A DNA stretch of 64,000 bases from Bacteroidota bacterium. Its GTDB lineage: Bacteria > Bacteroidota > Ignavibacteria > UBA10030. Both the position numbers and the translations under genes were made by a program. The DNA lies in the NCBI GenBank assembly GCA_049523215.1, contig JBEKNC010000006.1:21105-85104 (forward strand), read 5' to 3'. Of this stretch, positions 20,757 to 51,602 are shown in pieces. Positions within the stretch are counted from its first letter, which is position 1; every line of letters starts with the position of its first letter. Below the pieces are notes generated by a model that saw only the letters and a program-made list of their open reading frames with translations, did not search any database and had not been told where the DNA came from.

Positions 20757-21539
20757 ATGAAAGCGGTGATTTTATGCGGTGGTAAGGGGACACGGATCAA
20801 AGGGATATCCGAATTACTTCCTAAACCAATGGTGCCCATCGGCGGCATGCCTATTTTATGGCACATCATGAAGAACTATTCTCATCACGGGATCAAGGAA
20901 TTTATTCTGTGTTTGGGTTATAAATCATGGGAGATTAAAGAATTCTTTGTGAACTATAAGGCCATTTGCCATAATTTCACAATAAATCTTAAGAACGACC
21001 ATATGGACATTCACGATACTTTGGAAGACTCAGATTGGAAAGTGACGCTTGTCGATACCGGAGAAAACACCATGACAGGCGGACGCCTGTCGCGAGTGAA
21101 AAAATATTTAGAAGGTGAAGAGCTATTTTGTCTAACCTATGGTGACGGTCTTTCTGATATAAACATCCGGGAGAGTATAGAATTCCACAAGAAATCCGGA
21201 AAAATCGGTACATTAGCTGCCGTACATCCATCTTCGCGATTTGGTGAAATTACATTTAAAGATTCCACCGTCACAAATTTCAATGAAAAAGCAAATCTTG
21301 GACAAGGATGGATAAACGGCGGATTTATGATCTTCGACAATAAAAGACTCTGGGATTATTTGTGGTCAGATGATGATCTAGTGTTAGAGCGAGACACACT
21401 CCCTGCCCTAGTAAAAGACAATCAGCTGGGGGCATTCCAGCATGAGGGTTTCTGGCTTGGTATGGATACACCGCGAGAATATGAATCCTTAAACGAAATG
21501 TGGGCAAGCGGTACTGCTCTCTGGAAAACCTGGACTTAA
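20757..21539 (+). CDS. rfbF: Glucose-1-phosphate cytidylyltransferase
   Basis: MKAVILCGGKGTRIKGISELLPKPMVPIGGMPILWHIM... Confidence 0.9.
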   Translation: MKAVILCGGKGTRIKGISELLPKPMVPIGGMPILWHIMKNYSHHGIKEFILCLGYKSWEIKEFFVNYKAICHNFTINLKNDHMDIHDTLEDSDWKVTLVDTGENTMTGGRLSRVKKYLEGEELFCLTYGDGLSDINIRESIEFHKKSGKIGTLAAVHPSSRFGEITFKDSTVTNFNEKANLGQGWINGGFMIFDNKRLWDYLWSDDDLVLERDTLPALVKDNQLGAFQHEGFWLGMDTPREYESLNEMWASGTALWKTWT

Positions 21540-32505: not shown

Positions 32506-33798
32506 TCATCCTAAAATCTCTGCAAGTTCTTTCGCTATTACTTCTCTACTGAATTGTTTTGCAATCTCCGGATTGGGACTGCACGAAGAAAGTTGTTGAA
32601 AAATGTCTGTAGTGTCATAACTGTAAGAAAAGATTTTCCCGGCATTTGCCTTCCGTAAAATGCTTTCTACTTCGTTGTTCTCATCTCCGAAGACAATAAT
32701 TTTATTTCCTGTGCGTAAATATTCAAATAGTTTTCCAGGTATGTGGCGCTTCTCCGTCGGACATACAAGCAGGTATGTGGCATTCAGCATCTCTTCTATA
32801 ACTTTATTGTATGGAAGGAATCCGGCGTAGTCAGTCCAATCAGCAAGGTTATTTTCTTCTATTGCTCGTCTGATCCCAGGGCTTACCGTTCCAATAAATT
32901 TGAGGCGAAGTTTTCTTCCTCTATTGATTTCTTGTCGAATTGTTTTCCACAATATTCGCGGATTTTGGTAATCAAAAATATTCCCTGCATGAAGAATCGT
33001 TTCAACATTACTTGAAGATTGTCTCGTTAATCCATCGAAATTCTCTTCGTTGTAACCCCAATAAAGGACATGCGATTTGTCGTTTAGCCATGAATATTTT
33101 CTCACATAATCTTCTTTCATGCTTTCCGTAACAAACACTATATGTGAAGCTTCTTCTAGGACTGACCGTTCTAGGTGACGATCAAGCGCAAGTGTAATTA
33201 CGCTTCGTTTGAAATCACGGTAGTACGTGATATCAACCCACGGATCGATGAATACAGGAATATGCGGAATGCCAAATTCCTTGCTCAACTTTTTCCCAAC
33301 CAACAATGTCGTATGCGGCGGACCAATAGATACAATTGCCTGAATGTTTTCTGAACGAAGAATTTGTTTTCCCTTGCGGACGGCATTCCAGTACCAGCCA
33401 ATTCGTGCATCCGGTACAAAGAGATTCATCCGAATCCAAATTGCAAGTCGATGCCGCAGCCCGCGGTTGGTCGTTGATATTGTTTCCGATGCTGTCAATG
33501 GCGTGTTCTTCTCTTTTCCTAACAAGCGGCGGTAGAGGTCGAACGGTTCTACTGCTCGTGCTTTGAAGACCTTCAGATCAGGATCAACTTCCTTAAGCAA
33601 GGATTCATCTTGAGAAGAAAATGTGTCTTCATCTGCAGTGAGAACAATCGGTTGCCATCCAAAACCTGGCAGGTGCTGGATCATCTTTAACGGCCAGTGC
33701 AGGGTTGCTTTGCCGGACGGAGGCCAGAAATATGTAACAAAGAGGACTTGCTTCATTGATGGTGATGGATAACCGCTGTAATGTATCGTGATTTTCAC
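32506..33798 (-). CDS. Glycosyltransferase family 4 (WcaI-like)
   Basis: VLFVTYFWPPSGKA N-terminus typical of the WcaI-like GT4 subgroup. Start may be M15. Confidence 0.7.
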   Translation of the reverse strand: MKITIHYSGYPSPSMKQVLFVTYFWPPSGKATLHWPLKMIQHLPGFGWQPIVLTADEDTFSSQDESLLKEVDPDLKVFKARAVEPFDLYRRLLGKEKNTPLTASETISTTNRGLRHRLAIWIRMNLFVPDARIGWYWNAVRKGKQILRSENIQAIVSIGPPHTTLLVGKKLSKEFGIPHIPVFIDPWVDITYYRDFKRSVITLALDRHLERSVLEEASHIVFVTESMKEDYVRKYSWLNDKSHVLYWGYNEENFDGLTRQSSSNVETILHAGNIFDYQNPRILWKTIRQEINRGRKLRLKFIGTVSPGIRRAIEENNLADWTDYAGFLPYNKVIEEMLNATYLLVCPTEKRHIPGKLFEYLRTGNKIIVFGDENNEVESILRKANAGKIFSYSYDTTDIFQQLSSCSPNPEIAKQFSREVIAKELAEILG

Positions 33799-33894
33799 GG
33801 AATGTCAAAAAACATTCCTTCGATAAAAAGGAAATGGCTTCCTTCTGAACAACCGAAAAGAAGCCATCCAAATTCTTTCAAAAAGAATAGCTCG

Positions 33895-35520
33895 CTATTT
33901 CACTTGCAGCATTGTAGAATCACGAGGGAACAGTTGATCACGCATTGCTGCATTGTAAGCGAACAATGCCATAATTGTCGCTGCTTGTTTCATATCATCC
34001 TCAACAAGCCGGTCGTACACATCCATATTGGAATGACGCGTGCGGAGACTGTAATCCATCGGATCCTGTATGAATTGAAATCCCGGCAGTCCGACACCAT
34101 CGAACGCCTGATGGTCAGTGCCGCCCGTATTCGCAATCGTCAATGTCTGCGCAACAGGATCATCATAGGCCGCCAGCCAAGAACGGAAAATAGACCGCGC
34201 TCCTTCATTGCTCTGCAGATACACCCCGCGCACTCTGCCTCCGCCATTATCATTATTGAAATAGACACTGAATGAGCTTGCTTCAGGCTTAAAGATAACC
34301 GGGCCGGTTGTATTTGTTCCTTGCTGCCCGCTGGAATTCTGACGTTCGGCATAATGTTGCTTGACATATGCATGCGATCCAAGCAATCCTTCTTCTTCGC
34401 CGCCCCAGAGACAAATGCGGATCGTCCGTCGCGGCTGCAATCCGAGCTTTTTGATGATACGAAGACTTTCAAAACAGACTGTCACACCGCTGCCGTTATC
34501 CGTAGCGCCGGTACCGGAATGCCATGTGTCGAAGTGCGCACCGATCAACACTGTTTCATTCTTCAGATCTGTTCCGGGAATTTCTGCAATGATGTTGAAG
34601 CTGGAGTCTGCCTTCGTCGTTTCTACATCCAGTCGCATTTCTGCTTTCACCGAAATACCTTTTTGAATTGTTCGGACAAGACGATTATACTGCTCCGCCG
34701 ATACGGTTATCTGCGGAAGAAATGCCGGTGCATCGGCATCATAGGGATTTTTTCTGTTGTTAAAATACTCTACCGGGTCTTGCGGCATCTGCGGCACTGT
34801 TGCTCCCTGCACATACAGCAATGTCCCATCGTCACCCGGATTTGCTTCGAGTACCGCAGCAGCACCTTCCGACTGACAGAATTCTAACTTTCTAAAACCG
34901 AATCGGAACCGTTGAACACTCGCCGAGTCACCCCGCTCACGGCGAAAAAATCTGTTTTGATCGCTGATATTCCGGTTCGCAAGCTGCAACAGCGTTGAAT
35001 CTGCCCTGCGTGATGCATCCGGTTGAAAGTGCGGCTGCACCTTTACGGGTTCGCTGATCAACACCAACTTACCTTTTAACTTTCCATGAAATTTTGCCAG
35101 ATCGGACTCGTTCACAGCGTCCAAATAGATTACCTTGGCATCGACCGTTCCTCTGGTGCCGGGCGACCATGCTTTTGGATAGGCAATTACAGGAAACATC
35201 CGCGGTTCAGTAATGTTCAGGAAAAACTTTTTCAAACTCCATCCTTTTCCAACCGGAGCAAAGTTTTCAAAATGGACATTCTCAGCGCCGTATTCCTTCA
35301 GTTTGGCAACTGCCCATTCCGCGGCTTCCCGATATTCCGGGGACCAATTCAGCCGCGGAGCATGGACATCCGATAACCAACTCGAGATTTCCATCACAAG
35401 CGAGCGATTCAACCCCTCCTCTTTGATCTTTGTAATGGCAGCGGTATCGAGTTTTTCCTGTGCCGATGATAGCTGCATGCAGACTGCTAAAAGAAAAAAA
35501 AGAATAAATATGCGATTCAT
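33895..35520 (-). CDS. M28-family zinc aminopeptidase with PA domain, secreted
   Basis: Signal peptide. GAHFDTWHSGTGATDNGSG and CLWGGEEEGLLGSHAYV metal-ligand motifs. Confidence 0.8.
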   Translation of the reverse strand: MNRIFILFFLLAVCMQLSSAQEKLDTAAITKIKEEGLNRSLVMEISSWLSDVHAPRLNWSPEYREAAEWAVAKLKEYGAENVHFENFAPVGKGWSLKKFFLNITEPRMFPVIAYPKAWSPGTRGTVDAKVIYLDAVNESDLAKFHGKLKGKLVLISEPVKVQPHFQPDASRRADSTLLQLANRNISDQNRFFRRERGDSASVQRFRFGFRKLEFCQSEGAAAVLEANPGDDGTLLYVQGATVPQMPQDPVEYFNNRKNPYDADAPAFLPQITVSAEQYNRLVRTIQKGISVKAEMRLDVETTKADSSFNIIAEIPGTDLKNETVLIGAHFDTWHSGTGATDNGSGVTVCFESLRIIKKLGLQPRRTIRICLWGGEEEGLLGSHAYVKQHYAERQNSSGQQGTNTTGPVIFKPEASSFSVYFNNDNGGGRVRGVYLQSNEGARSIFRSWLAAYDDPVAQTLTIANTGGTDHQAFDGVGLPGFQFIQDPMDYSLRTRHSNMDVYDRLVEDDMKQAATIMALFAYNAAMRDQLFPRDSTMLQVK

Positions 35521-35595
35521 AAGAAATATCCTTCCGTTTTAGATTCCCACGTAAATGTACCCTGAATCCTATGGAATGTCAAAAGAGGAATAGAA

Positions 35596-36360
35596 TTACT
35601 TGCAGAGAAAATCTCCTTCGAGGAGGAGATGTCCGTTCTTCTGCCTCACCTGCGGTATCGGCATTTCATCGAAGGTTCTTCCGGAGAGCTCGCGGCCGGC
35701 TGCTTTCTTGCGGACACCACCCCATTGCTTAAAGAAAAATGGAACTTCTGCTTCCCGGCAGCGGCGCTTAATCTGCGTTACCCAGTCACGCTCCATCGGG
35801 CGCGCACCCGGACCCGATTCGCCGCCGACAATAACCCAATCAATTCCTCTCAGTGGAAGTCTTGAGATGGGGCCAAGCAGCGGTTCTAAGGAAAGAAATC
35901 TCACAGCTGCTGGCACTTTGACCAGTTCATGGATCCGGTCTGTATATTTTTGAGATTCGACGCTCACGCCCATCCAGACATTTTCCGGCCACGGGAGATA
36001 CGGCGCAATTTGTACTAACCGATCCGATCTCTTCGTGAGTATCTGGAAAGTATGCCAATGTGCACGCTTCATGGTATCAAAAACTTTTACGATGAAATCG
36101 CAGGGAACATCTTTATGCAATAAATCGCTCATCGAGTTCACAAAAATGACGCGCGGTTGTTTCCATTCGAGCGGCAATTCAACGATATCTTCCTGGAGCG
36201 TGACTTGAAATCCATTCCGATACCGTGATGATCCCATTGCCTGAAGCCGCATAGCCATCCGCTCTGCGTAGCAATTCTTGCAGCCCGGACTGATTTTACT
36301 GCAGCCGGTTACCGGGTTCCAGGTAGATTCAGTCCATTCAATATGAGATTTTATCGCCAT
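35596..36360 (-). CDS. Phage Gp37/Gp68-family (DUF5131) protein with an N-terminal three-Cys motif
   Basis: N-terminus [36 protein letters not shown] matches the hallmark IEWT..TWNP.TGC...SxGCxxCYA signature of PF07505. Confidence 0.7.
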
Positions 36361-36362
36361 GA

Positions 36363-37247
36363 TTAATCCTCGAAAAGAGGTCTTTGATCTGATGCATATT
36401 TTTTAACTTCTTTCCAATATCGATATCCTAAAGAATGGCGAGAAAAAAATGCCAAATGATATAGAGATAAATTTTTTTCATCTGATTTGATTTCAAGCAT
36501 TTGTTTAATCGATTCTTCTTTATAATTTAATGTAACCATTTGTTGTGCATATTCGTTCGCTAGAAATTTACGAAAACTTTTCCCTTTAATTTGTTCATTT
36601 TTCCAGCGACCTCTCCATTCTGATAATCCAAGAAATTTATCGATTCTTTGATTGTTATTCTCTATATAAATAGATTCGTTTCTGACTCCATCCATAGAAA
36701 GAGCAAGAAGAATCAAAAAATCAACATATCTTTGTGCACATAGAGTTCTGATCGTATCAAATTCTATATTTAAAGAGAATGGATCCACAAAACAGAAAGT
36801 TAAAACTTTGTTATTCCGAGAAGGCGTTGGAATAAGCTTTAAAACATCAGTGATTTTTTTATTGCAGTCACCTAATATATAATGTGCATTCACTTGTGGA
36901 TATTCAGATTCTACCCTTGTTTGCAACGCCTGTAATAATCCTTCATTTTCTTCACAAAAAATGTATTGATCAAATTTATTTGCTAGTCCTAAAGCAAGAA
37001 GGGGCGAACCCGCTAAGATTTTATCTGTGTTCCTAACTTTTGCCTTTCCCGAACCAGCAAAAAGATCAATATAGACAAGTTGATTCCATGAATGCCTTAT
37101 ACCCTTTAAAAAAAGATCACAATAGAGATGCACTAATTTATATTTTCTCTCTGCCCAACTCCCGACTTCTGGAATAATAAGCCCATCATCAGATGAACAA
37201 ATACCTGAATGGTCAATATTTAAGCTGTTATCAATTTTATTCCCCAT
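36363..37247 (-). CDS. TcmP-like 'three-Cys-motif partner' protein. Methyltransferase-fold with RsmD-like motifs
   Basis: Sits 3 nt upstream of the Gp37/68 gene. Motif I-like IDLFAGSG. Motif IV-like FCFVDPF (DPPF-like). Confidence 0.55.
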
Positions 37248-37361
37248 TTTTTCCCTTTCATGACAATTAATTTACTTCTTCGCTTCCTTTTCCTTCCTTA
37301 CACTCTCTGAATCACCTTCACCACCCACCTCCTTCCGCCTCAACAATGTCCCTAATCCCGG

Positions 37362-37787
37362 TTATTTCTTTTTCCCGCACTCAATACAATATCCTTTGTG
37401 AACACAAATCGTACCTTTACATCGGGAACAAGTCCATCTTATATCTTCGTTCTTTAAAAATTTTCTCATACTGAAATTTTTAATATTTTCAAGATTTTCG
37501 ATCATGCTCATATCGTATTTAGTTCGGTATCTTGTATCCAAATGTTTCAAATTATCGCAGGGGAAATTTCGGCATTCAAAACAAAACTTCGCTTTGCCTT
37601 TTTGAAATATTGTGCAGGTCTTGATTTTACATCTAACACGGGTGATCGGTTTATCGGTGTCCACTCCTCTACAACCGGGACATTTATTTTTTTCTCTCAA
37701 ATAAGCCATGCAAATGCCGCAGTTCATTCCGCAGGGGGCTACAAGAGAAAATTTATTCAAGGATTCCATCTTTTCTTTCTCACACAC
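37362..37787 (-). CDS. Cys-rich small protein, DUF3795-like
   Basis: APCGMNCGICMAY, CPGCRG, CFEC, CSRC, CIEC. 18 cysteines in 141 aa. Overlaps the repressor gene by 8 nt. Confidence 0.5.
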   Translation of the reverse strand: MCEKEKMESLNKFSLVAPCGMNCGICMAYLREKNKCPGCRGVDTDKPITRVRCKIKTCTIFQKGKAKFCFECRNFPCDNLKHLDTRYRTKYDMSMIENLENIKNFSMRKFLKNEDIRWTCSRCKGTICVHKGYCIECGKKK

Positions 37788-38442
37788 TCTTAATCACTTT
37801 TATGACGCGCCACATGAAAGTCACGTCCTTCTTGCGCACGACCATCGGTTCGTATTCGGGATTGAGTGGAATCAAATGTACAAACTGCTCATCGATTTTG
37901 ATCCGCTTCACGGTGTCCTCCTCATCCACGCGCACCACGCAGATATCACCGCTTCTCACTTCTAATTTTGGCGTTACCACGATGATGTCGCCGTTCTCAA
38001 TGCGGGGCGCCATGCTGTTTCCCTTCACTTCGAGTGCGAAAGCATTCGGGTCGCGAACATCATCCACCGTAATGTATCGGTCAGCATGATCGGAATGAAA
38101 CCGCTGACTCAATGCACCAGCTGGCACAGAGGCAAGCAAGGGGAGTGAAACGAGGTCTACTTTTTTATAACGGCTTGTCGGTAATGGTATAACCTTGGAT
38201 TTGTGCTGTTCAGCAGAAACCATCTCTCCTTCACCAGTCAGTAGCCAGTGAGCCGTTATGCCGGTTGCTTTGGCAATGCGCATGAGATAATTACTGTCAG
38301 GCACCTGTTCGCCTTTTTCCCAGCGTTGAACGGTGCGAGTGGCAATATCGATCTTCGCGGCAAGGTCAGCTTGATCAAATTGTTTTAACAACCGCGCTTC
38401 GCGGATGCGTTGTGCAATTGTAGATTTCATAGAGTTATTCAC
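37780..38442 (-). CDS. LexA-like / phage cI-like repressor (XRE-type HTH plus S24 autopeptidase)
   Basis: HTH: IAQRIREARLLKQFDQADLAAKIDIATRTVQRWEKG. Ala-Gly cleavage site VPAGAL. Ser in GNSMAP and Lys in TVKRIK. Confidence 0.8.
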   Translation of the reverse strand: MNNSMKSTIAQRIREARLLKQFDQADLAAKIDIATRTVQRWEKGEQVPDSNYLMRIAKATGITAHWLLTGEGEMVSAEQHKSKVIPLPTSRYKKVDLVSLPLLASVPAGALSQRFHSDHADRYITVDDVRDPNAFALEVKGNSMAPRIENGDIIVVTPKLEVRSGDICVVRVDEEDTVKRIKIDEQFVHLIPLNPEYEPMVVRKKDVTFMWRVIKVIKSV

Positions 38443-38471
38443 TTTCTTCGGAATTTTTTTCCACCACCCCT

Positions 38472-38882
38472 TTATCCCCTCCTCACAGAGGAGGGGACAT
38501 GGGGAGGAGTAATTTTCTCATTGTATCTTGTTGTCCATTCGTAAATCGTTTGAAGAACACCATCTATATTGTTGCAAACATCATCGTTGGTAAAGCGCAT
38601 AAAATGAATACCGAAAGATTCAATATACTTCTGCCGTTCGTTGTCATATTTCTCAGAGAGATAGCCATAGTGACTATCTCCATCAATTTCGATAGCGAGC
38701 TTGAGTTCTGGACAATAGAAATCAATGACATACTGATTCACACTATATTGCCGGCGAAATTTGAATCCATTCATTTGTTTTCGTGAAAGATGCAACCAGA
38801 TAACCGCTTCCGCCTTCGAAAGTGATCGACGTAATGCTTTACGTCGTGCTGTATATGTTTTGTTATTAAAGACAATCGACAT
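38472..38882 (-). CDS. DUF559 (Vsr-like endonuclease domain) protein
   Basis: YVIDFYCPELKLAIEIDGDSHY pattern. A GC-rich hairpin encodes the last 8 codons. Confidence 0.65.
   Translation of the reverse strand: MSIVFNNKTYTARRKALRRSLSKAEAVIWLHLSRKQMNGFKFRRQYSVNQYVIDFYCPELKLAIEIDGDSHYGYLSEKYDNERQKYIESFGIHFMRFTNDDVCNNIDGVLQTIYEWTTRYNEKITPPHVPSSVRRG
38476..38496. repeat. Perfect 9-bp-stem hairpin cccctcctc-aca-gaggagggg (REP-like). A related copy lies at 39160-39186
   Basis: Read directly from the sequence. Confidence 0.5.
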
Positions 38883-38913: not shown

Positions 38914-38929
38914 ACGACATAAATGTCAT
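38914..38929. promoter_or_regulatory. Candidate operator site 1: ACGACAT-AA-ATGTCAT imperfect palindrome
   Basis: About 35 nt upstream of the DUF559/repressor operon start. Inverted copy of the same motif at 39023-39040. Confidence 0.35.
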
Positions 38930-39014: not shown

Positions 39015-39043
39015 TTGACAAGATGACAAAAATGTCGTATTCT
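39015..39043 (+). promoter_or_regulatory. σ70-like promoter candidate TTGACA-17-TATTCT pointing toward the imuA-like/polB genes, with operator site 2 (ATGACA-AAAA-TGTCGT) filling the spacer
   Basis: TTGACA at 39015-39020. Operator at 39023-39040. TATTCT at 39038-39043. Confidence 0.35.
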
Positions 39044-39199
39044 TTTTTAGGAATATAAGTTCTCATTACTCAATGAGAGTGTTAATAATGATAGAGGAAC
39101 AATTCCCTCTCCTCATAAAAGAGGGTTAGGGTGAGGTCAAAAAAACTGACCCCCATCTTAGTCCTCCCCTTGGAAGGGAGGAGACTAATAAAAGAATTT

Positions 39200-39991
39200 A
39201 TGAGCAAAATAAAACCCATATCTCCCGCCCAGCATCACCGCCGGTACCCTGCTCCGCAGCCAACCGTGGATATACACGATGATGCGGTGCCTATTCGCTC
39301 TGAGCGGATGATTCATGCCTTTGCAGACAAGCCCGGCAAGGTATTTCTGCTGTACGGCGAGCGGTCTATTTTTCAACTATCGCTTCAGATGGCCGCACAC
39401 GCGATGGTTCAGGGAAATCCTATTGCCGTTGTAGACGGCTGCAACCGTTTCGATGTGCACGCGCTTTCACGATTTGCACGCGTACGGAAAATAGACCCGA
39501 ACAAGTTCCTCAATCATATCTTCATCTCGCGCGGCTTCACGTGTTATCAAATGGAACAGGCTATTACACATAAGCTGCCGGCGTTTCTTGCTACCATTCA
39601 TTCAAGCACTGCACTGGTCTTTGGACTGCTCGACACCTTTTACGACGAACAGGCATCTCTGCGTGAAGTGCGGCAGATTCTTCAGAGACTGCTCGGCTCG
39701 TTTCAAGAAATGAAATCGAAAGGAGTCTCGCTCCTGCTGGTGTGTTTGGAAAGGACCGTTGCACCGCAGGAACGCAATCAGTTATTTACCACACTCAAAA
39801 ACGGTGTGGATCGCGTGTATAAACTCGATACCAATGAACGCGGATCGCTTCAGCTCTACTTAGAATCTCAACAGCCCGTGCACGAACAAATAAAAGGAAC
39901 ATTGAATTATGGGACGAACCGTACCCACCTTTACCAACCTGATCGATGCGGAACTGGCAAGCTGGTCGAAGTTCCGCCGCGGACTGCGTAA
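39200..39991 (+). CDS. ImuA/SulA-like RecA-fold protein (degenerate Walker A)
   Basis: KPGKVFLLYGERSIFQLSLQMAAHA...IAVVDGCNRFDVHALSRFA...VSLLLV. Matches the ImuA/SulA family pattern. No GKS/T lysine. The listed ORF begins at a GTG at 39131. ATG at 39200 used here. Confidence 0.5.
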   Translation: MSKIKPISPAQHHRRYPAPQPTVDIHDDAVPIRSERMIHAFADKPGKVFLLYGERSIFQLSLQMAAHAMVQGNPIAVVDGCNRFDVHALSRFARVRKIDPNKFLNHIFISRGFTCYQMEQAITHKLPAFLATIHSSTALVFGLLDTFYDEQASLREVRQILQRLLGSFQEMKSKGVSLLLVCLERTVAPQERNQLFTTLKNGVDRVYKLDTNERGSLQLYLESQQPVHEQIKGTLNYGTNRTHLYQPDRCGTGKLVEVPPRTA

Positions 39992-40206
39992 AGACGATCA
40001 GGAAGTCTTCGACGAAATATTCCGCGCTGCAAAACTGCATCTGGCAGAAAATTTTTATGCGATGCGTGCAGTTCCGTTCGAAAGCATGATGATGTCGATT
40101 GTAGTAGAACAGCAGAAGACGCTTCGGCGATTAGAGGAAGAAAGGAAGAAGTTAAGTAGATGAGTCTGTGAGTAGATGAGTAAGAGAAGGATGGAATAAT
40201 AGAACT

Positions 40207-42537
40207 ATGATTCAATCAGGCAATCACCCAATGGCTCAATCACGCCTCTCTGCCTGGCTGTTCGATGTGTATCCGTCTGAACGCGGCGTTACACTCTGGT
40301 TCATCGGCCGGAACGGTGTACGGCTGCGCTGCTTCCGAAAATTCACGCCCTCGTTCTTTCTTCACCTGAACAATTTCGACGCCAAGCGTGCGGCGGTTCT
40401 TGCCAATCAGTGCCCTATTCCAATATCACTTGTACCAACCACCCGTACGGAAATTTATTCCGGCGATTCCATCGACGTGCTGCAAGTCTTTGTTCATGAT
40501 CCGATGCGGTTCAAGAAAGTTGTATGGTACTTCGAGAAATTTTTTCCACACTTTGCATTTTTTAATTCCGATGTTTCCGTGGAACAGCAATTTCTGTATG
40601 AAACACAGCTGTTTCCGCTGGCACTTGGCGAGTATGAGGTCAGCAAGGAAGAAGAACTTCTCTCCTGGCATCTCAATGACAACCGTGAAGCGCCGGAATA
40701 TGAGCTGCCGCCGTTTTCCATTATGCAGCTTCGCAACAGTCCCGACTTTGTCGGGATGCCGCCGAAGTACCAAAAGTTTCTGCAATTAGAGATCAGTTAC
40801 GACAGCCGGACATATGCTTTAGAACAAAATTCGCCGCGCGAACTGCTCGAAGCGTTCAACTGGCATCTGCATCACTGCGATCCCGACTTGCTCGTTACCG
40901 ATTACGGCGATGCTGTTCTTCTTCCGAAGATTCTGCAGCTTTCCAAACAGTTCAACATTCCTTTGCTTCTCAATCGAGACACTGAGGCACAGCACCGCAC
41001 GACGAAGGAATCAAGTTTCTTTCAGTACGGAAAGATTGTCCACAAAGACGGCGCATTCACGCTCGCCGGGCGCTGGCATGTCGATGCGAACAATTCTTTT
41101 ACCGTGAGCGAAGCCGATCTTGACGGATTATTCGAGATGACACGTCTGACACAAATGTGCGGACAGCGGCAGGGACGCGCGAGCATCGGCACATCGATGT
41201 CATCGATGCAGCTTTCGTGGGCTTACCGCAACAATGTTCTTATTCCGTCGAAGAAGCGCGAACCGGAGGAGTTCAAGTCAGCTGCAACACTGCTGCTTGC
41301 CGACCGCGGTGGACTTATTTTTAACCCTCCGCTTGGCTATCACGAAGATGTTGCTGAACTCGATTTCGTCTCGATGTACCCAAACATTATGGTCAACAAC
41401 AATGTCTCGCCGGAAACGATCAACTGTCGATGCTGTAAAAATGAAGTTGTTCCGGAACTCGGTTACACAATCTGCGAAAAGCGGAGAGGCGTTGTGCCGG
41501 AGACACTTCGCGCTGTTGTCGCCAAACGTGCGTACTACAAACGGAAGAAAAAAGAATTCAAGGGAAAAGATGAAGCGCTTTTTAAACGGTACGATTGCCA
41601 GCAAAGTGCGCTCAAGTGGATGCTGGTAAGCTGTTTCGGATATCTCGGCTACAAGAATGCGCGCTTCGGCCGCATCGAAGCGCACGAATCAGTCAATGCC
41701 TTTTCGCGGGACGCCATTCTCACTGCAAAAGAAATTGCCGAGAGCCGCGGCTACAAGCTTCTCCACGCTATCATCGATTGTGTGTGGCTGAAAAAGCCGG
41801 GCGCGACACAGAACGATTACGAAGAGCTTACGCGTGAAATCTCCACACGTGTCGGTATTGATATTTCGCTGGAAGGCATGTACAACTGGATTCTTTTCCC
41901 TGCTTCCAAAACTGATCCGTATATCGCTACAGCAAATCACTATGTGGGATGGTACCGGCATGGTGACATCAAAATGCGCGGCATTGAAGCGCGCCAGCGT
42001 GATACGCCGAAGTTCATCAAGAACATGCAGAAAGCAATGCTGGATAAAATGTCCGCCGCAAAGAATGTCGAGGAAGTATCGGCACTCGTGCCGGAGATGT
42101 TGGAGATCGCACGCGACTTCATTGCAATTCTTCAAAGCGGCCGCGCAAACCCGATGGAGCTTGTTCTCAAACGCCACATCACGCATGAGGCCGATGAATA
42201 TCTCAATAACAGCATCAGCGCGGTTGTCTCAAAGATGGTAGAAGAAATGGGAGTACATCTCTCAGCAGGCGAGTCGATCGAGTTCATTATTCTCGATCAA
42301 TCCGGCAAGAAAAAGCCTGAAAAAGCTAAACCTGTTGCGTTGTACGCATTCGAGGATGGCTACGATATTGAGCAGTATACCGAGCTTGCCTTGCGGGCAG
42401 TGGAAACGCTTCTCCTTCCTTTCGGCTACGATGTACAGCGGTTGAAAGCACATTTTAAAATCGGCATACCAAAACAAAAGCGCCTGCAGGTACCCCAAAA
42501 AAGTCAGGAACTCCCGTTGTTCCGAATCCAGGTCTAA
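40207..42537 (+). CDS. Family B DNA polymerase (Pol II-like) with apparently degenerate 3'-5' exonuclease motifs
   Basis: Motif A DFVSMYPNIM. Motif B KWMLVSCFGYLGY. Motif C region HAIIDCVWL. Pol II-like N-terminus AWLFDVYPSERGVTLWFIGRNG. Expected Exo I (F/V)D(I/V)E(T) position is occupied by FSIMQL. Alternative start ATG 40231. Confidence 0.75.
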   Translation: MIQSGNHPMAQSRLSAWLFDVYPSERGVTLWFIGRNGVRLRCFRKFTPSFFLHLNNFDAKRAAVLANQCPIPISLVPTTRTEIYSGDSIDVLQVFVHDPMRFKKVVWYFEKFFPHFAFFNSDVSVEQQFLYETQLFPLALGEYEVSKEEELLSWHLNDNREAPEYELPPFSIMQLRNSPDFVGMPPKYQKFLQLEISYDSRTYALEQNSPRELLEAFNWHLHHCDPDLLVTDYGDAVLLPKILQLSKQFNIPLLLNRDTEAQHRTTKESSFFQYGKIVHKDGAFTLAGRWHVDANNSFTVSEADLDGLFEMTRLTQMCGQRQGRASIGTSMSSMQLSWAYRNNVLIPSKKREPEEFKSAATLLLADRGGLIFNPPLGYHEDVAELDFVSMYPNIMVNNNVSPETINCRCCKNEVVPELGYTICEKRRGVVPETLRAVVAKRAYYKRKKKEFKGKDEALFKRYDCQQSALKWMLVSCFGYLGYKNARFGRIEAHESVNAFSRDAILTAKEIAESRGYKLLHAIIDCVWLKKPGATQNDYEELTREISTRVGIDISLEGMYNWILFPASKTDPYIATANHYVGWYRHGDIKMRGIEARQRDTPKFIKNMQKAMLDKMSAAKNVEEVSALVPEMLEIARDFIAILQSGRANPMELVLKRHITHEADEYLNNSISAVVSKMVEEMGVHLSAGESIEFIILDQSGKKKPEKAKPVALYAFEDGYDIEQYTELALRAVETLLLPFGYDVQRLKAHFKIGIPKQKRLQVPQKSQELPLFRIQV

Positions 42538-49742: not shown

Positions 49743-51602
49743 GTGCTTCGTTCAATCATCACAACATTTTTTATTACAACAAGTCTCTTAGCTCAAAACA
49801 AAGTTGACACGGTCCAACTGCTGCCACCTATACAAGCCAACATAAAGAAAGACACACTTTTCTTGCAAGTACAGCGTCCGGATAAGGATACTATTTGGAC
49901 ATTTGCCTCGCGTTATCGGATAGCCGCTTGCACACGTCCGGATGCGAAAGCATTTATTAACGGGAAGCAAACAAAAGTATATGCAAGCGGAGCGTTTGTT
50001 GAACTTGCACATATTAACGTCGATACAAATATTATTCGTTTCACCGTAAAGTCGGCAGCCGGTGATTCGTTGTGGAAGGAGTTTGTCATCATTTGTCCCG
50101 AACCGATGAAGAACTCACCGCACGACACGCTTGTCATCGAACAAGCTATGATGGAACCATCCGAAGATATGTGGTTGACAACAGGCGATGTGCTGGAAGT
50201 AAAATTTAAAGGAAGCCCGGGATGGGAAGCATCGTTTGATATTCCGAAAGTTGAATCAGGAATTCCAATGCGCGAAGTGCCGCCGAGCGAAGGCGGCGGA
50301 TTTACCGGCATCTACATCGGCCGCTACAAAGTAAAAGCGACTGACGTAACGCATGAAGTACAGATCGAATTCCGACTGAAGAAAGGTTTCTGGAGCCGTG
50401 AGAAAGCATACTCTACAGCGAAGATTTCTATTCTTCCAAAAGAATTACCGCGCGTTGCAGAAGTTATTGGCAAGCGTCCGTATCTCAATGCCGGGCTTGG
50501 TGAGGATCGGCTTGGTGGTTCAAAACTTGGTTTTCTTCAAGCGGGTGTGCGGGTAGAGGTAACAGGAAAAATCGGATCGCAGTACCGCATACGCTTATCA
50601 GAAACAATGGAAGCATGGCTGTCGGAAGAATTTGCAAAACTCCTTTCGCCGGATACGCCAGTAGTACGATCGCTCGCCGGCGCAATTTCTGCAACCGGCA
50701 GTAGTACAGAAGATATTGTTACGGTTGCTCTTTCTGAAAAGCTTCCTTTCACAAGCGAGCAGTCAGTCAATCCCAATGCAATTGTTGTGGATATCTATGG
50801 TGCAACATCGAATACAAATTGGATTTCGCAGCAGCTTTCTGCAAAAGGAATCGAAAGCATAACATGGAAACAAGTTGCTGCAAACCAGTACCAAATCATC
50901 ATCAGTCTTCTGCATTCACATTGGGGATATGATATTGACTATGCAAGTAATTTGCTGCGCGTGAAGATCCGTCGCGCGCCAATGATGGCGTCGCCCGATT
51001 CAGTTCTTTCCGGACTCACCATTGCCGTTGATGCAGGACATGGCGGCGACAATCACGGTGCAATCGGTGCAACGGGCGTACAAGAAAAAGATATGACCAT
51101 CTCGATGGTTCATTACGTTGATTCTATTCTAACCGCCAAGGGTGCAAAGGTTGTACTAACACGAACGGAAAATGACGGCGCGGCAATGTCCGAGCGCATA
51201 GATAAAATTGTTCGTTCAGGTGCGCGCCTGCTAGTAAGTCTTCATTGTAATTCTGCCGGTGATGCCTCCGATCCGCTTGCTCTTCGCGGGGTCAGCACGT
51301 ACTACCGACATATTGGTTTTAAACCACTTGCCGACATTATGTATGACAAGATGCTTGCTATCGGACTAAAACAGTTTGGTGTTGTAGGTGGCTTTAACTT
51401 TATGCTCAATTCACTAACACAATTGCCCAATGTGCTCATAGAAACGGCGTTTCTTTCTCATCCAGAAGATGAAATGCTTTTGTTGGATAATGGATTCCGA
51501 AAGAAGGTGGCGGAGCAGATTGTAAAAGGACTTGAAGAATTTGTGAAAATTAATGCAGATGGATCGGAAATTGCAAAGGATAAACTAAGAAGTAAAAAGT
51601 AG
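49743..51602 (+). CDS. N-acetylmuramoyl-L-alanine amidase (Amidase_3) with a long N-terminal domain
   Basis: C-terminal IAVDAGHGGDNHGAIG...VSLHCNSA Zn-ligand pattern. Confidence 0.85.
   Translation: MLRSIITTFFITTSLLAQNKVDTVQLLPPIQANIKKDTLFLQVQRPDKDTIWTFASRYRIAACTRPDAKAFINGKQTKVYASGAFVELAHINVDTNIIRFTVKSAAGDSLWKEFVIICPEPMKNSPHDTLVIEQAMMEPSEDMWLTTGDVLEVKFKGSPGWEASFDIPKVESGIPMREVPPSEGGGFTGIYIGRYKVKATDVTHEVQIEFRLKKGFWSREKAYSTAKISILPKELPRVAEVIGKRPYLNAGLGEDRLGGSKLGFLQAGVRVEVTGKIGSQYRIRLSETMEAWLSEEFAKLLSPDTPVVRSLAGAISATGSSTEDIVTVALSEKLPFTSEQSVNPNAIVVDIYGATSNTNWISQQLSAKGIESITWKQVAANQYQIIISLLHSHWGYDIDYASNLLRVKIRRAPMMASPDSVLSGLTIAVDAGHGGDNHGAIGATGVQEKDMTISMVHYVDSILTAKGAKVVLTRTENDGAAMSERIDKIVRSGARLLVSLHCNSAGDASDPLALRGVSTYYRHIGFKPLADIMYDKMLAIGLKQFGVVGGFNFMLNSLTQLPNVLIETAFLSHPEDEMLLLDNGFRKKVAEQIVKGLEEFVKINADGSEIAKDKLRSKK

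Follow-up and report, generated by a model that had tools for sequence, protein, structure and literature searches.

A PolB2 operon beside a lexA-like gene in an Ignavibacteria genome: a probable SOS-controlled translesion polymerase complex

Family-B DNA polymerases of the archaeal PolB2 (Dpo2) group and their bacterial offshoot, designated G2, have lost several conserved motifs, and these losses are published as a hallmark of the group (Kazlauskas 2020, PMC7544198; Feng 2022, PMC8764526; Timinskas 2025, PMC11791011). In groups B2 and G2, exonuclease motif ExoI is not conserved, ExoIII is "missing altogether" and one Asp is kept in motif C (PMC7544198). The sequence HxxxD in place of YxDTD is the PolB2 form of motif C, and bacterial G2 has the same mutations (PMC8764526). 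An iRadA-PPB2-PolB2 operon has been described, together with a predicted heteropentamer, PolB2:iRadA:PPB2(3), based on models that cover other members, and an enrichment of lexA near PolB2 operons was also noted (PMC11791011). Here, an operon of this kind was analysed in a 64,000-nucleotide stretch of DNA (the window) from a metagenome-assembled genome of Bacteroidota bacterium (Ignavibacteria; UBA10030), comprising positions 21,105 to 85,104 of contig JBEKNC010000006.1 in GenBank assembly GCA_049523215.1. The gene of interest belongs to the PolB2 family, which is already known, and within it to the bacterial group G2, acquired from archaea. Its product is very probably the catalytic subunit of a PolB2 mutasome that includes iRadA and PPB2, is controlled by LexA and serves as an "extender" in translesion synthesis (TLS). 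Coordinates of the features are collected in Table 1.

The locus shares with the published type 1a operon (PMC7544198, PMC11791011) its gene order, the HxxxD/IID form of motif C, the losses of ExoI, ExoII and ExoIII and the MGRT start of PPB2, as well as a RadA core without a P-loop, a loop of the FxxA type followed by D(K/R), a probable clamp motif confined to one partner and an adjacent lexA. It differs from it in a DUF559 gene between operator and lexA, a 145-bp leader insertion and an 83-nt overlap of iRadA with PPB2; none of these differences is essential. Because the gene belongs to PolB2, its odd motifs are a known family hallmark and not a new discovery. Both the motif loss and its TLS interpretation restate published knowledge of PolB2/G2, Ignavibacteriales orthologues included, and the additions made here are small: a candidate operator, the leader insertion and a Cys cluster. 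The supplementary table of PMC11791011 contains Ignavibacteriales PolB2 entries of operon type 1a with the same string, HAIIDCVWL, that is found in the window protein. One entry, MBI3110572.1, corresponds to the Ignavibacteriales orthologue L029 recovered here, with which it shares its first 30 residues, and L029 and the window PolB2 have 70% identity. The window protein itself and the string QELPLF from its C terminus were absent from the entries of that supplement that were listed, which contained orthologues only.

The window PolB2 was matched by Pfam DNA_pol_B at 2e-33, and no Pfam exonuclease domain matched it at E<=0.01. Its exact sequence is in the databases under the name [quoted passage not shown]; a second possible start, at 40231, corresponds to the 768-aa NCBI call. 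More than 4000 homologues were found, mainly in Ignavibacteria. The nearest relatives beyond Ignavibacteriota and Bacteroidota include archaeal PolB genes with PPB2 and/or iRadA alongside, and the archaeal PolB genes adjoining PPB2/iRadA are 32-36% identical to the window PolB2 over ~740 aa. Thermococcales PolB was alignable by sequence only at residues 312-748. The AlphaFold model (predicted local distance difference test score, pLDDT, 91.9; predicted template-modelling score, pTM, 0.89) was matched over its whole length by archaeal (Thermococcales) PolB in Foldseek, with template-modelling (TM) scores of 0.70-0.73.

The sequence-only reading, made from the DNA without database searches, had set the protein beside "Pol II-type" enzymes. 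An SOS polymerase of the E. coli Pol II type would be a single-subunit, proofreading-proficient enzyme for accurate restart and lesion extension, and it would account for the similar size (776 vs 783 aa), the link to the SOS response, a C-terminal clamp motif resembling QLGLF of Pol II and the name "DNA polymerase II" that some sources give to homologues. However, the Pol II models of NCBIfam reached only 21-46 bits against cut-offs of 570-1435, and the best NCBIfam matches were generic "type B DNA-directed DNA polymerase" models, themselves under their cut-offs. In the profile search, E. coli Pol II (3k57) was matched in palm and fingers only and at E=2.6e-32, far below archaeal PolB at 6e-113. 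The exonuclease carboxylates are absent, and the gene shares its operon with two partners not found with Pol II. On these grounds, a Pol II-type enzyme is hardly credible; by sequence, the closest affinity of the window PolB2 appears to be with archaeal PolB2, and not with Pol II or the replicative PolB1/B3.

Polymerase motifs were located by reference to Pyrococcus furiosus (Pfu) Pol, in a copy confirmed to be identical to PDB 3a2f_A over 775 residues. Single-sequence HMMER, a profile of 76 representatives (30-40% identity) searched against PDB, and MAFFT all agreed on their positions. Conservation was counted in a broader set of 76 homologues (A1) and in a set of 103 that are mostly bacterial PolB2 (A2), with an overall range of 30-95% identity. 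The catalytic Asp of motif A, reported as present in the sequence-only reading, is D386 and is invariant in both sets (76/76 and 103/103), and Y391 is found in 100/103. Motif B had been described as intact, which is true of K470 and not of the positions that follow it: residues 470-482 read KWMLVSCFGYLGY and, compared with KxxxNSxYG of Pyrococcus PolB, have Val474 for the canonical Asn and Phe477 for the canonical Tyr, both replacements being family-wide. In RB69-type enzymes, the equivalents of this Asn and Tyr make contact with the incoming nucleotide and act as minor-groove sensors. Their replacement would fit a tolerance of distorted termini. In motif C, 520-HAIID-524 lies opposite Y-I-D-T-D of Pyrococcus PolB, with Ile522 at the first Asp and D524 at the second; the observation that HAIIDCVWL keeps only the second Asp was therefore correct. 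H520 is present in 102/103 homologues and D524 in 103/103.

In some longer PolB2 representatives of 1200-1300 aa (e.g., P0125, P0163 and P0172), the match to the window protein was split in two, with the first part ending at query residues 477-478, in motif B, a pattern that may reflect the insertion of an intein at that point. Another homologue, of 888 aa (P0349), had TIR-domain Pfam matches (PF01582 and PF13676) beside its polymerase domain.

The damaged motif C and exonuclease motifs were the basis of the original prediction for PolB2, cited in PMC7544198 and PMC8764526, of an inert pseudo-polymerase with a structural or regulatory role. In the window protein, the loss of the first Asp of motif C, the change of its Tyr to His and the lack of the canonical Asn and Tyr in motif B all agree with that prediction. 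Several lines of evidence oppose it. The retained Asp of motif C is the metal ligand in solved PolB structures (summarised in PMC8764526), and for this reason an atypical motif C does not imply impaired catalysis. D386, D524, K470 and Y391, together with K589/R591/R596/D599, are invariant or nearly so in homologues at 30-95% identity, and a dead active site would not be expected to be conserved in this way. In addition, Sulfolobus Dpo2 shares the IID/HxxxD motif and matches the replicase in activity (PMC8764526). An inert protein is thus very unlikely, and a catalytically competent PolB2 is preferred.

The polymerase domain also contains a Cys cluster, CxCC-x12-C, present in 103/103 of A2 and in 65-69/76 of A1. 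The cluster may be a structural metal or disulphide site at the position of the Thermococcales C428-C442 disulphide. The terms "cysteine" and "zinc" have zero occurrences in the main text of PMC11791011.

In the AlphaFold model, a strand at 172-177 is followed by strands at 194-198 and 201-204, a helix at 210-224, a strand at 228-231 and a helix at 234-249. This is the strand and helix order of an RNase-H-like exonuclease domain, with 172-177 as its first strand, and it favours an Exo I position at F170-S171-I172-M173-Q174. The sequence-only reading had identified this same segment, FSIMQLRNS, as one without the acidic pair of Exo I, and the model agrees: S171 stands at the Asp position, which is R/K/S in the family, and M173 at the Glu position, which is M/L. 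The HMMER profile alignment instead put Exo I on a hairpin at 149-156, where the acidic pair is absent too. Because neither alignment yields DxE, the loss of Exo I does not depend on the placement chosen. The alignment of Exo II was unambiguous, with Pfu D215 opposite Leu238 both in the HMMER alignment to P. abyssi PolB and in MAFFT with Pfu Pol, and the position is Leu/Ile in 98/103 homologues. In the Exo III region, the profile alignment gave ~39 residues from the conserved GRWHVD strand to the palm vs ~84 in P. abyssi PolB, and no Tyr-x3-Asp was found in this ~39-residue segment; Exo III is effectively deleted. Exo I and Exo III were misplaced when PolB2 sequences and Pfu Pol were aligned globally with MAFFT, and for these two motifs that alignment was set aside in favour of the HMMER profile alignments and the model order. 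The pattern is not due to chance because identical substitutions are fixed in more than 100 homologues at 30-95% identity. With neither Exo I nor Exo II retaining carboxylates, the Exo III segment missing and no exonuclease match in Pfam, the description of the protein as exonuclease-dead is well founded.

The activity expected of such an enzyme is known from archaea. Dpo2 from S. islandicus and S. solfataricus is a robust polymerase with no detectable 3'-5' exonuclease; it inserts poorly opposite lesions and efficiently extends mismatched and lesion-paired termini (PMC8764526). Compared by description, Sulfolobus Dpo2 and the window PolB2 have in common the IID motif C, the invariant His and the absence of Exo motifs, and Dpo2 shows damage-inducible expression and has the same partner genes. 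On the other hand, Dpo2 is much smaller, its exonuclease domain is strongly decayed and its IID lies at 401-403 (vs 522-524 here). Factors of the Orc1-2/Cdc6 type regulate it in place of LexA, and its clamp partner, if it has one, would be PCNA instead of beta. By analogy with the archaeal enzymes, the window PolB2 would be an active polymerase with extender behaviour. With no active site in the exonuclease-like domain, it would be unable to remove a 3' end that is mismatched or paired with a lesion and would hence extend it.

A dedicated translesion or mutator polymerase, as proposed in the sequence-only reading, is also the published view of the PolB2 family (PMC8764526, PMC11791011), and the comparison made there with eukaryotic Pol zeta parallels one drawn by Timinskas et al. 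(PMC11791011). Pol zeta (Rev3) is likewise a family-B polymerase with an inactivated exonuclease and a multisubunit, damage-linked "extender", although it belongs to another, Delta-like PolB clade (PMC7544198). The relationship is thus one of analogy and not orthology. Pol zeta keeps a canonical DTD motif C, is accompanied by Rev7, Pol31 and Pol32 and has a C-terminal metal-binding domain.

A true PolB2 complex might alternatively serve SOS repair synthesis of a non-mutagenic kind, such as the filling of gaps left after excision or abasic-site processing. This possibility draws on the finding that SRAP and DUF72, a relative of UV-damage endonuclease, are enriched in PolB2 neighbourhoods (PMC11791011). 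However, SRAP and DUF72 genes were not found among the open reading frames scanned at 31036-51602, and both the loss of proofreading and the altered minor-groove-sensing residues of motif B would fit tolerance of distorted termini. Non-mutagenic repair synthesis is unlikely for this locus, and an extender role in TLS remains the preferred assignment. The operon partners and the probable SOS control, which were absent from the sequence-only reading, are stronger functional evidence.

The genes for iRadA, PPB2 and PolB2 are adjacent and co-oriented on the + strand, and this order was recovered in 53-57 of 70 related loci (iRadA upstream in 53/70). Less than ~1.1 kb of sequence is available upstream of PolB2 in 11 of the 13 loci without PPB2; L027, L054 and L055 are without PPB2 despite a full 5-kb flank, on both sides in L027 and L054 and upstream only in L055. 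No Pfam match was obtained for iRadA. When a profile of 53 iRadA homologues was compared with PDB, the best match was P. furiosus RadA (4a6p, E=0.0018; 1pzn, E=0.0036), and the top 50 Foldseek matches to the core of the AlphaFold model (pLDDT 84-97) were all Rad51/Dmc1/RadA, with E ~1e-11 to 1e-10. Residues 1-25 are disordered in this model and the helical N-domain is absent. The P-loop position reads LLYGERSIFQLS, and the protein has no GKT/S and no GxxxxGK[ST]. The RadA profile and fold matches, combined with the absence of the P-loop, identify this 263-aa protein as an ATPase-dead RadA core without an N-terminal domain, i.e., iRadA.

The small, presumably helical protein encoded next has the MGRT start defined for PPB2 in PMC11791011. 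The same start is present in 56/57 PPB2 homologues upstream of PolB2 genes, a count that includes archaeal PPB2 sequences with 37-47% identity from Altiarchaeota, Hydrothermarchaeota and Methanomassiliicoccales (L062, L063 and L070). The last 83 nt of iRadA (39909-39991) overlap PPB2 in another frame, and the overlap is kept in many relatives. The C-terminal tail of iRadA encoded in the overlap, YGTNRT...KLVEVPPRTA, was considered as evidence of function or of programmed frameshifting and was rejected; it is disordered in the model and is probably just an alternative reading of the conserved PPB2 5' end. True iRadA-PPB2 fusions do occur among published relatives.

Contacts between the three proteins have been modelled for other members, with an FxxA-like beta-alpha motif, resembling the Rad51 oligomerisation motif, as the iRadA-binding site of PolB2 and D(K/R) as the contact of the PPB2 arm (PMC11791011). 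The corresponding loop in the window PolB2 has a pLDDT of 66-71 and is highly conserved, with F/W/Y356 in 102/103, K357 in 101/103, A/G359 in 101/103, an invariant D366 and K/R367 in 98/103 homologues.

The C-terminal tail of PolB2 is disordered (pLDDT <=50) and contains QELPLF, a probable beta-clamp-type motif as judged from its sequence. Relatives keep Q[ED]LPLF, KQIPLF or QxxLF amid a variable linker and tail, and a Bacteroidota orthologue in the table of PMC11791011 has QLSLF at the same position. With a simple regular expression, clamp-like motifs were recognised in only 10/103 PolB2 tails, and the motif is therefore lineage-specific. This agrees with the literature. A clamp-binding motif is described there in PolB2 or iRadA and rarely in both (PMC11791011). 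No convincing clamp motif was found in iRadA of the window; a conserved QL(F/Y)LE directly after the last confident core strand was considered and rejected, as it has no terminal aromatic residue.

Divergent from the operon lies a gene for a LexA-like protein, which gave matches to Pfam Peptidase_S24 (1.4e-26), HTH_3 and Phage_CI_repr. When the C-terminal domain is aligned with E. coli LexA, its Ala-Gly cleavage site falls in register, as do the Ser in GNSM and the Lys in VKRI. The N-terminal domain matches the 434 and P22 repressors, which have the lambda-CI type of helix-turn-helix (HTH), and not the winged helix of LexA. An XRE/CI-type HTH joined to an S24 peptidase is the architecture of the non-canonical Bacteroidetes LexA, which autoregulates and controls error-prone polymerases via short dyad-spacer-dyad palindromes (Sanchez-Osuna 2021, PMC8565304). 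The motifs given for it are GGA-N5-TCC, CTAA-N5-TTAG and TTAC-N5-GTAA, in contrast to (A)CGACA-N4-TGTCG(T) here; "Ignavibacteriota" and "polB" have 0 occurrences in that paper.

The sigma-70-like promoters assigned to the operon and to the divergent DUF559/lexA-like genes are the two best in the 5-kb neighbourhood. Each is overlapped by a copy of a 16-bp palindrome, ACGACA-N4-TGTCGT, which is conserved in relatives. In related loci, GACA-N4-TGTC occurred 44 times in 18.6 kb upstream of iRadA vs 30 times in 501 kb elsewhere, and many of the sites elsewhere, including nearly all of those with an A/T-only spacer, adjoin lexA-like starts or directly precede solo PolB2 genes. The palindrome is a likely SOS operator because, in relatives, it is found almost only beside lexA-like genes and PolB2 operons. 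Comparative support for an SOS operator consensus of ACGACA-W4-TGTCGT is good, and its position and conservation suggest binding by the repressor. There is roughly an even chance that the palindrome is an undescribed SOS operator of the Ignavibacteriota XRE-type LexA; the PolB2 operon, itself of archaeal origin, would then belong to the core of the SOS regulon in the phylum. A palindromic operator is not mentioned in the available parts of PMC11791011. At 50122-50137, inside an amidase gene, lies a third palindrome-like site; its spacer is rich in G+C, and it was judged to be a chance occurrence.

An insertion of ~145 bp with G+C-rich hairpins (39052-39196) separates the -10 element (39038-39043) from the iRadA start (39200), and no further copies of it were found in the window. 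The iRadA ATG is only 11 nt after the -10 in most relatives, as exemplified by L001, L003, L005 and L012, and a nearly leaderless mRNA is therefore implied for them.

Solo PolB2 genes were observed in four Ignavibacteriales loci (L022, L027, L054 and L055). The encoded proteins are ~72% identical to the window PolB2, two candidate operators lie directly upstream, and the locus sequences, which for L022 extend only 856 nt upstream of PolB2, contain no iRadA or PPB2. The FKSA and DRGG partner-contact motifs are kept. In L027 and L054, the PolB2 gene is located between purN/purH-like and pdxJ-like open reading frames (named from N-terminal sequences only).

These features can be arranged in a proposed mechanism. 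In an undamaged cell, the LexA-like repressor would occupy the two palindromes and shut both its own unit and the polymerase operon. Upon DNA damage, RecA-stimulated self-cleavage of the repressor at Ala-Gly, via its Ser/Lys dyad, would derepress both units. The FKSA (FxxA) loop of PolB2 would bind iRadA, and the MGRT arm of a PPB2 trimer would contact PolB2 near D366-R367, in a stoichiometry taken from the published models. The C-terminal QELPLF motif would bring the complex to stalled primer ends by binding the clamp. Polymerisation by D386 and D524 would then extend mismatched or lesion-paired 3' ends and fix damage-induced mutations, as expected in "extender" TLS. Such a complex would resemble the E. 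coli Pol V mutasome (UmuD'2C-RecA) and ImuA-ImuB-DnaE2, which are also LexA-controlled, multisubunit and error-prone, with a RecA-family subunit and beta-clamp binding (PMC11791011). Unlike PolB2, however, their catalytic subunits are of family Y or C, and their RecA/ImuA partner is bacterial RecA-like, whereas the PolB2 partner is archaeal RadA-like. PolB2 can be viewed as an archaeal multisubunit mutasome that was taken up by bacteria and rewired to LexA and the beta clamp. The window locus offers a clean, complete example, in which the repressor, a pair of candidate operators, the two partner genes and a probable clamp motif occur together; it would lend itself to experimental tests of the mutasome model published from in-silico work and could help define the Ignavibacteriota SOS box.

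Several points weigh against this proposal. No biochemical work on a bacterial PolB2 was found in the searched literature, and the activity and extender role are carried over from the Sulfolobus enzymes, which are much smaller and share only ~30% identity. For the window protein, the heteropentamer and the clamp complex are deduced from published models of other members. The Exo I placement is based on secondary-structure order and not on residue-level superposition, and QELPLF is a hexapeptide variant and not the canonical QLxLF. In this genome, the leader insertion stands between the promoter and the first start codon. Finally, L044/L045, from an Ignavibacterium album metagenome-assembled genome, have the operon and no GACA-N4-TGTC upstream; regulation in that lineage may be different.

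Table 1. Positions of the PolB2 operon, its motifs, its regulatory elements and the neighbouring genes in the window.
Feature	Position	Strand	Remarks
PolB2 (bacterial group G2) catalytic subunit	40207-42537	+	776 aa; family-B DNA polymerase, dead exonuclease-like domain
Exo I-equivalent strand, F170-S-I-M-Q174	40714-40728	+	No Asp/Glu; placed by model secondary-structure order
Exo II-equivalent segment, G234-D-A-V-L238-L-P240	40906-40926	+	Leu238 replaces catalytic Asp
FxxA F356-K-S-A359 and D(K/R) D366-R367	41272-41307	+	Predicted contact site for iRadA / PPB2 N-terminal arm
Motif A, D386-F-V-S-M-Y-P392	41362-41382	+	Catalytic Asp D386, steric-gate Tyr391
Cys cluster, C407-x-C409-C410-x12-C423	41425-41475	+	Counts in A1/A2 given in the text
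Motif B, K470-WMLVSCFGYLGY-482	41614-41652	+	Lys kept, Val474 for Asn, Phe477 for Tyr
Motif C, H520-A-I-I-D524	41764-41778	+	HxxxD replacing YxDTD; metal-binding second Asp kept
QELPLF, Q767-E-L-P-L-F772	42505-42522	+	Probable beta-clamp-binding motif, 4 residues before C-terminus (RIQV)
iRadA	39200-39991	+	263 aa; Rad51/RadA core without Walker A and N-terminal domain
PPB2	39909-40163	+	84 aa; small, presumably helical partner, MGRTVPTFT start
Operon promoter, sigma-70-like TTGACA-17 nt-TATTCT	39015-39043	+	10/12 consensus positions; consensus match only
Divergent DUF559/lexA-like promoter, TTGACA-18 nt-TATTTT	38963-38934	-	
Operator 1 (candidate), ACGACATAAATGTCAT	38914-38929	.	Just downstream of -10 of lexA-side promoter
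Operator 2 (candidate), ATGACAAAAATGTCGT	39023-39038	.	Inside spacer of operon promoter
LexA-like SOS repressor	37780-38442	-	XRE/434-CI-type HTH and S24 autopeptidase; divergent from operon
DUF559 endonuclease-like gene	38472-38882	-	Pfam DUF559 4.9e-33; between operator 1 and lexA-like gene
DUF3795	37362-37787	-	Overlaps lexA-like stop
Three-Cys-motif partner protein TcmP	36363-37247	-	TIGR04474, 1.4e-41
DUF5131	35596-36360	-	9e-102

The gene neighbourhood bears on a further alternative. Bacterial family-B polymerases are often located on mobile elements, and the window PolB2 might serve to replicate a virus or mobile element integrated in the genome (a pipolin, casposon or prophage, for example). 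A slightly raised G+C (0.49 vs ~0.44) and the nearby DUF559 gene and TcmP/DUF5131 pair are compatible with this idea. However, adjacent genes for an integrase, a terminal protein or structural proteins are absent, and the neighbours are of a housekeeping kind, with the arginine-biosynthesis genes argC/J/B and argG, glycosyltransferases, a peptidase and an Omp85-like gene. The operon and its operators are also kept across many Ignavibacteriota metagenome-assembled genomes in varied contexts, including the purN/purH-like - pdxJ-like one. Replicative PolBs of mobile elements normally keep proofreading, which counts further against this origin. The chance that the gene is a mobile-element replicase is therefore slim, and an SOS-controlled PolB2 mutasome is favoured.

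A close copy of the DUF559 gene is found at the same position only in the window, L001, L002 and L004. L007 and L008 have a DUF559-like match that is 34-39% identical and on the opposite strand, and the other lexA-like loci have none; the gene is a passenger and does not belong to the conserved system. Its 3' end extends into a G+C-rich sequence that resembles a hairpin (38460-38510). On the far side of the repressor gene, DUF3795, TcmP and DUF5131 (35596-37787, - strand) may form one SOS-controlled transcription unit with the lexA-like gene. Further along, two copies of a 31-nt direct repeat (33780-33810 and 35554-35584), AATGTA...GGAATGTCAAAA, are 77% identical and flank a peptidase M28 gene (33895-35520), the G+C content of which, 0.50, is above that of its surroundings.

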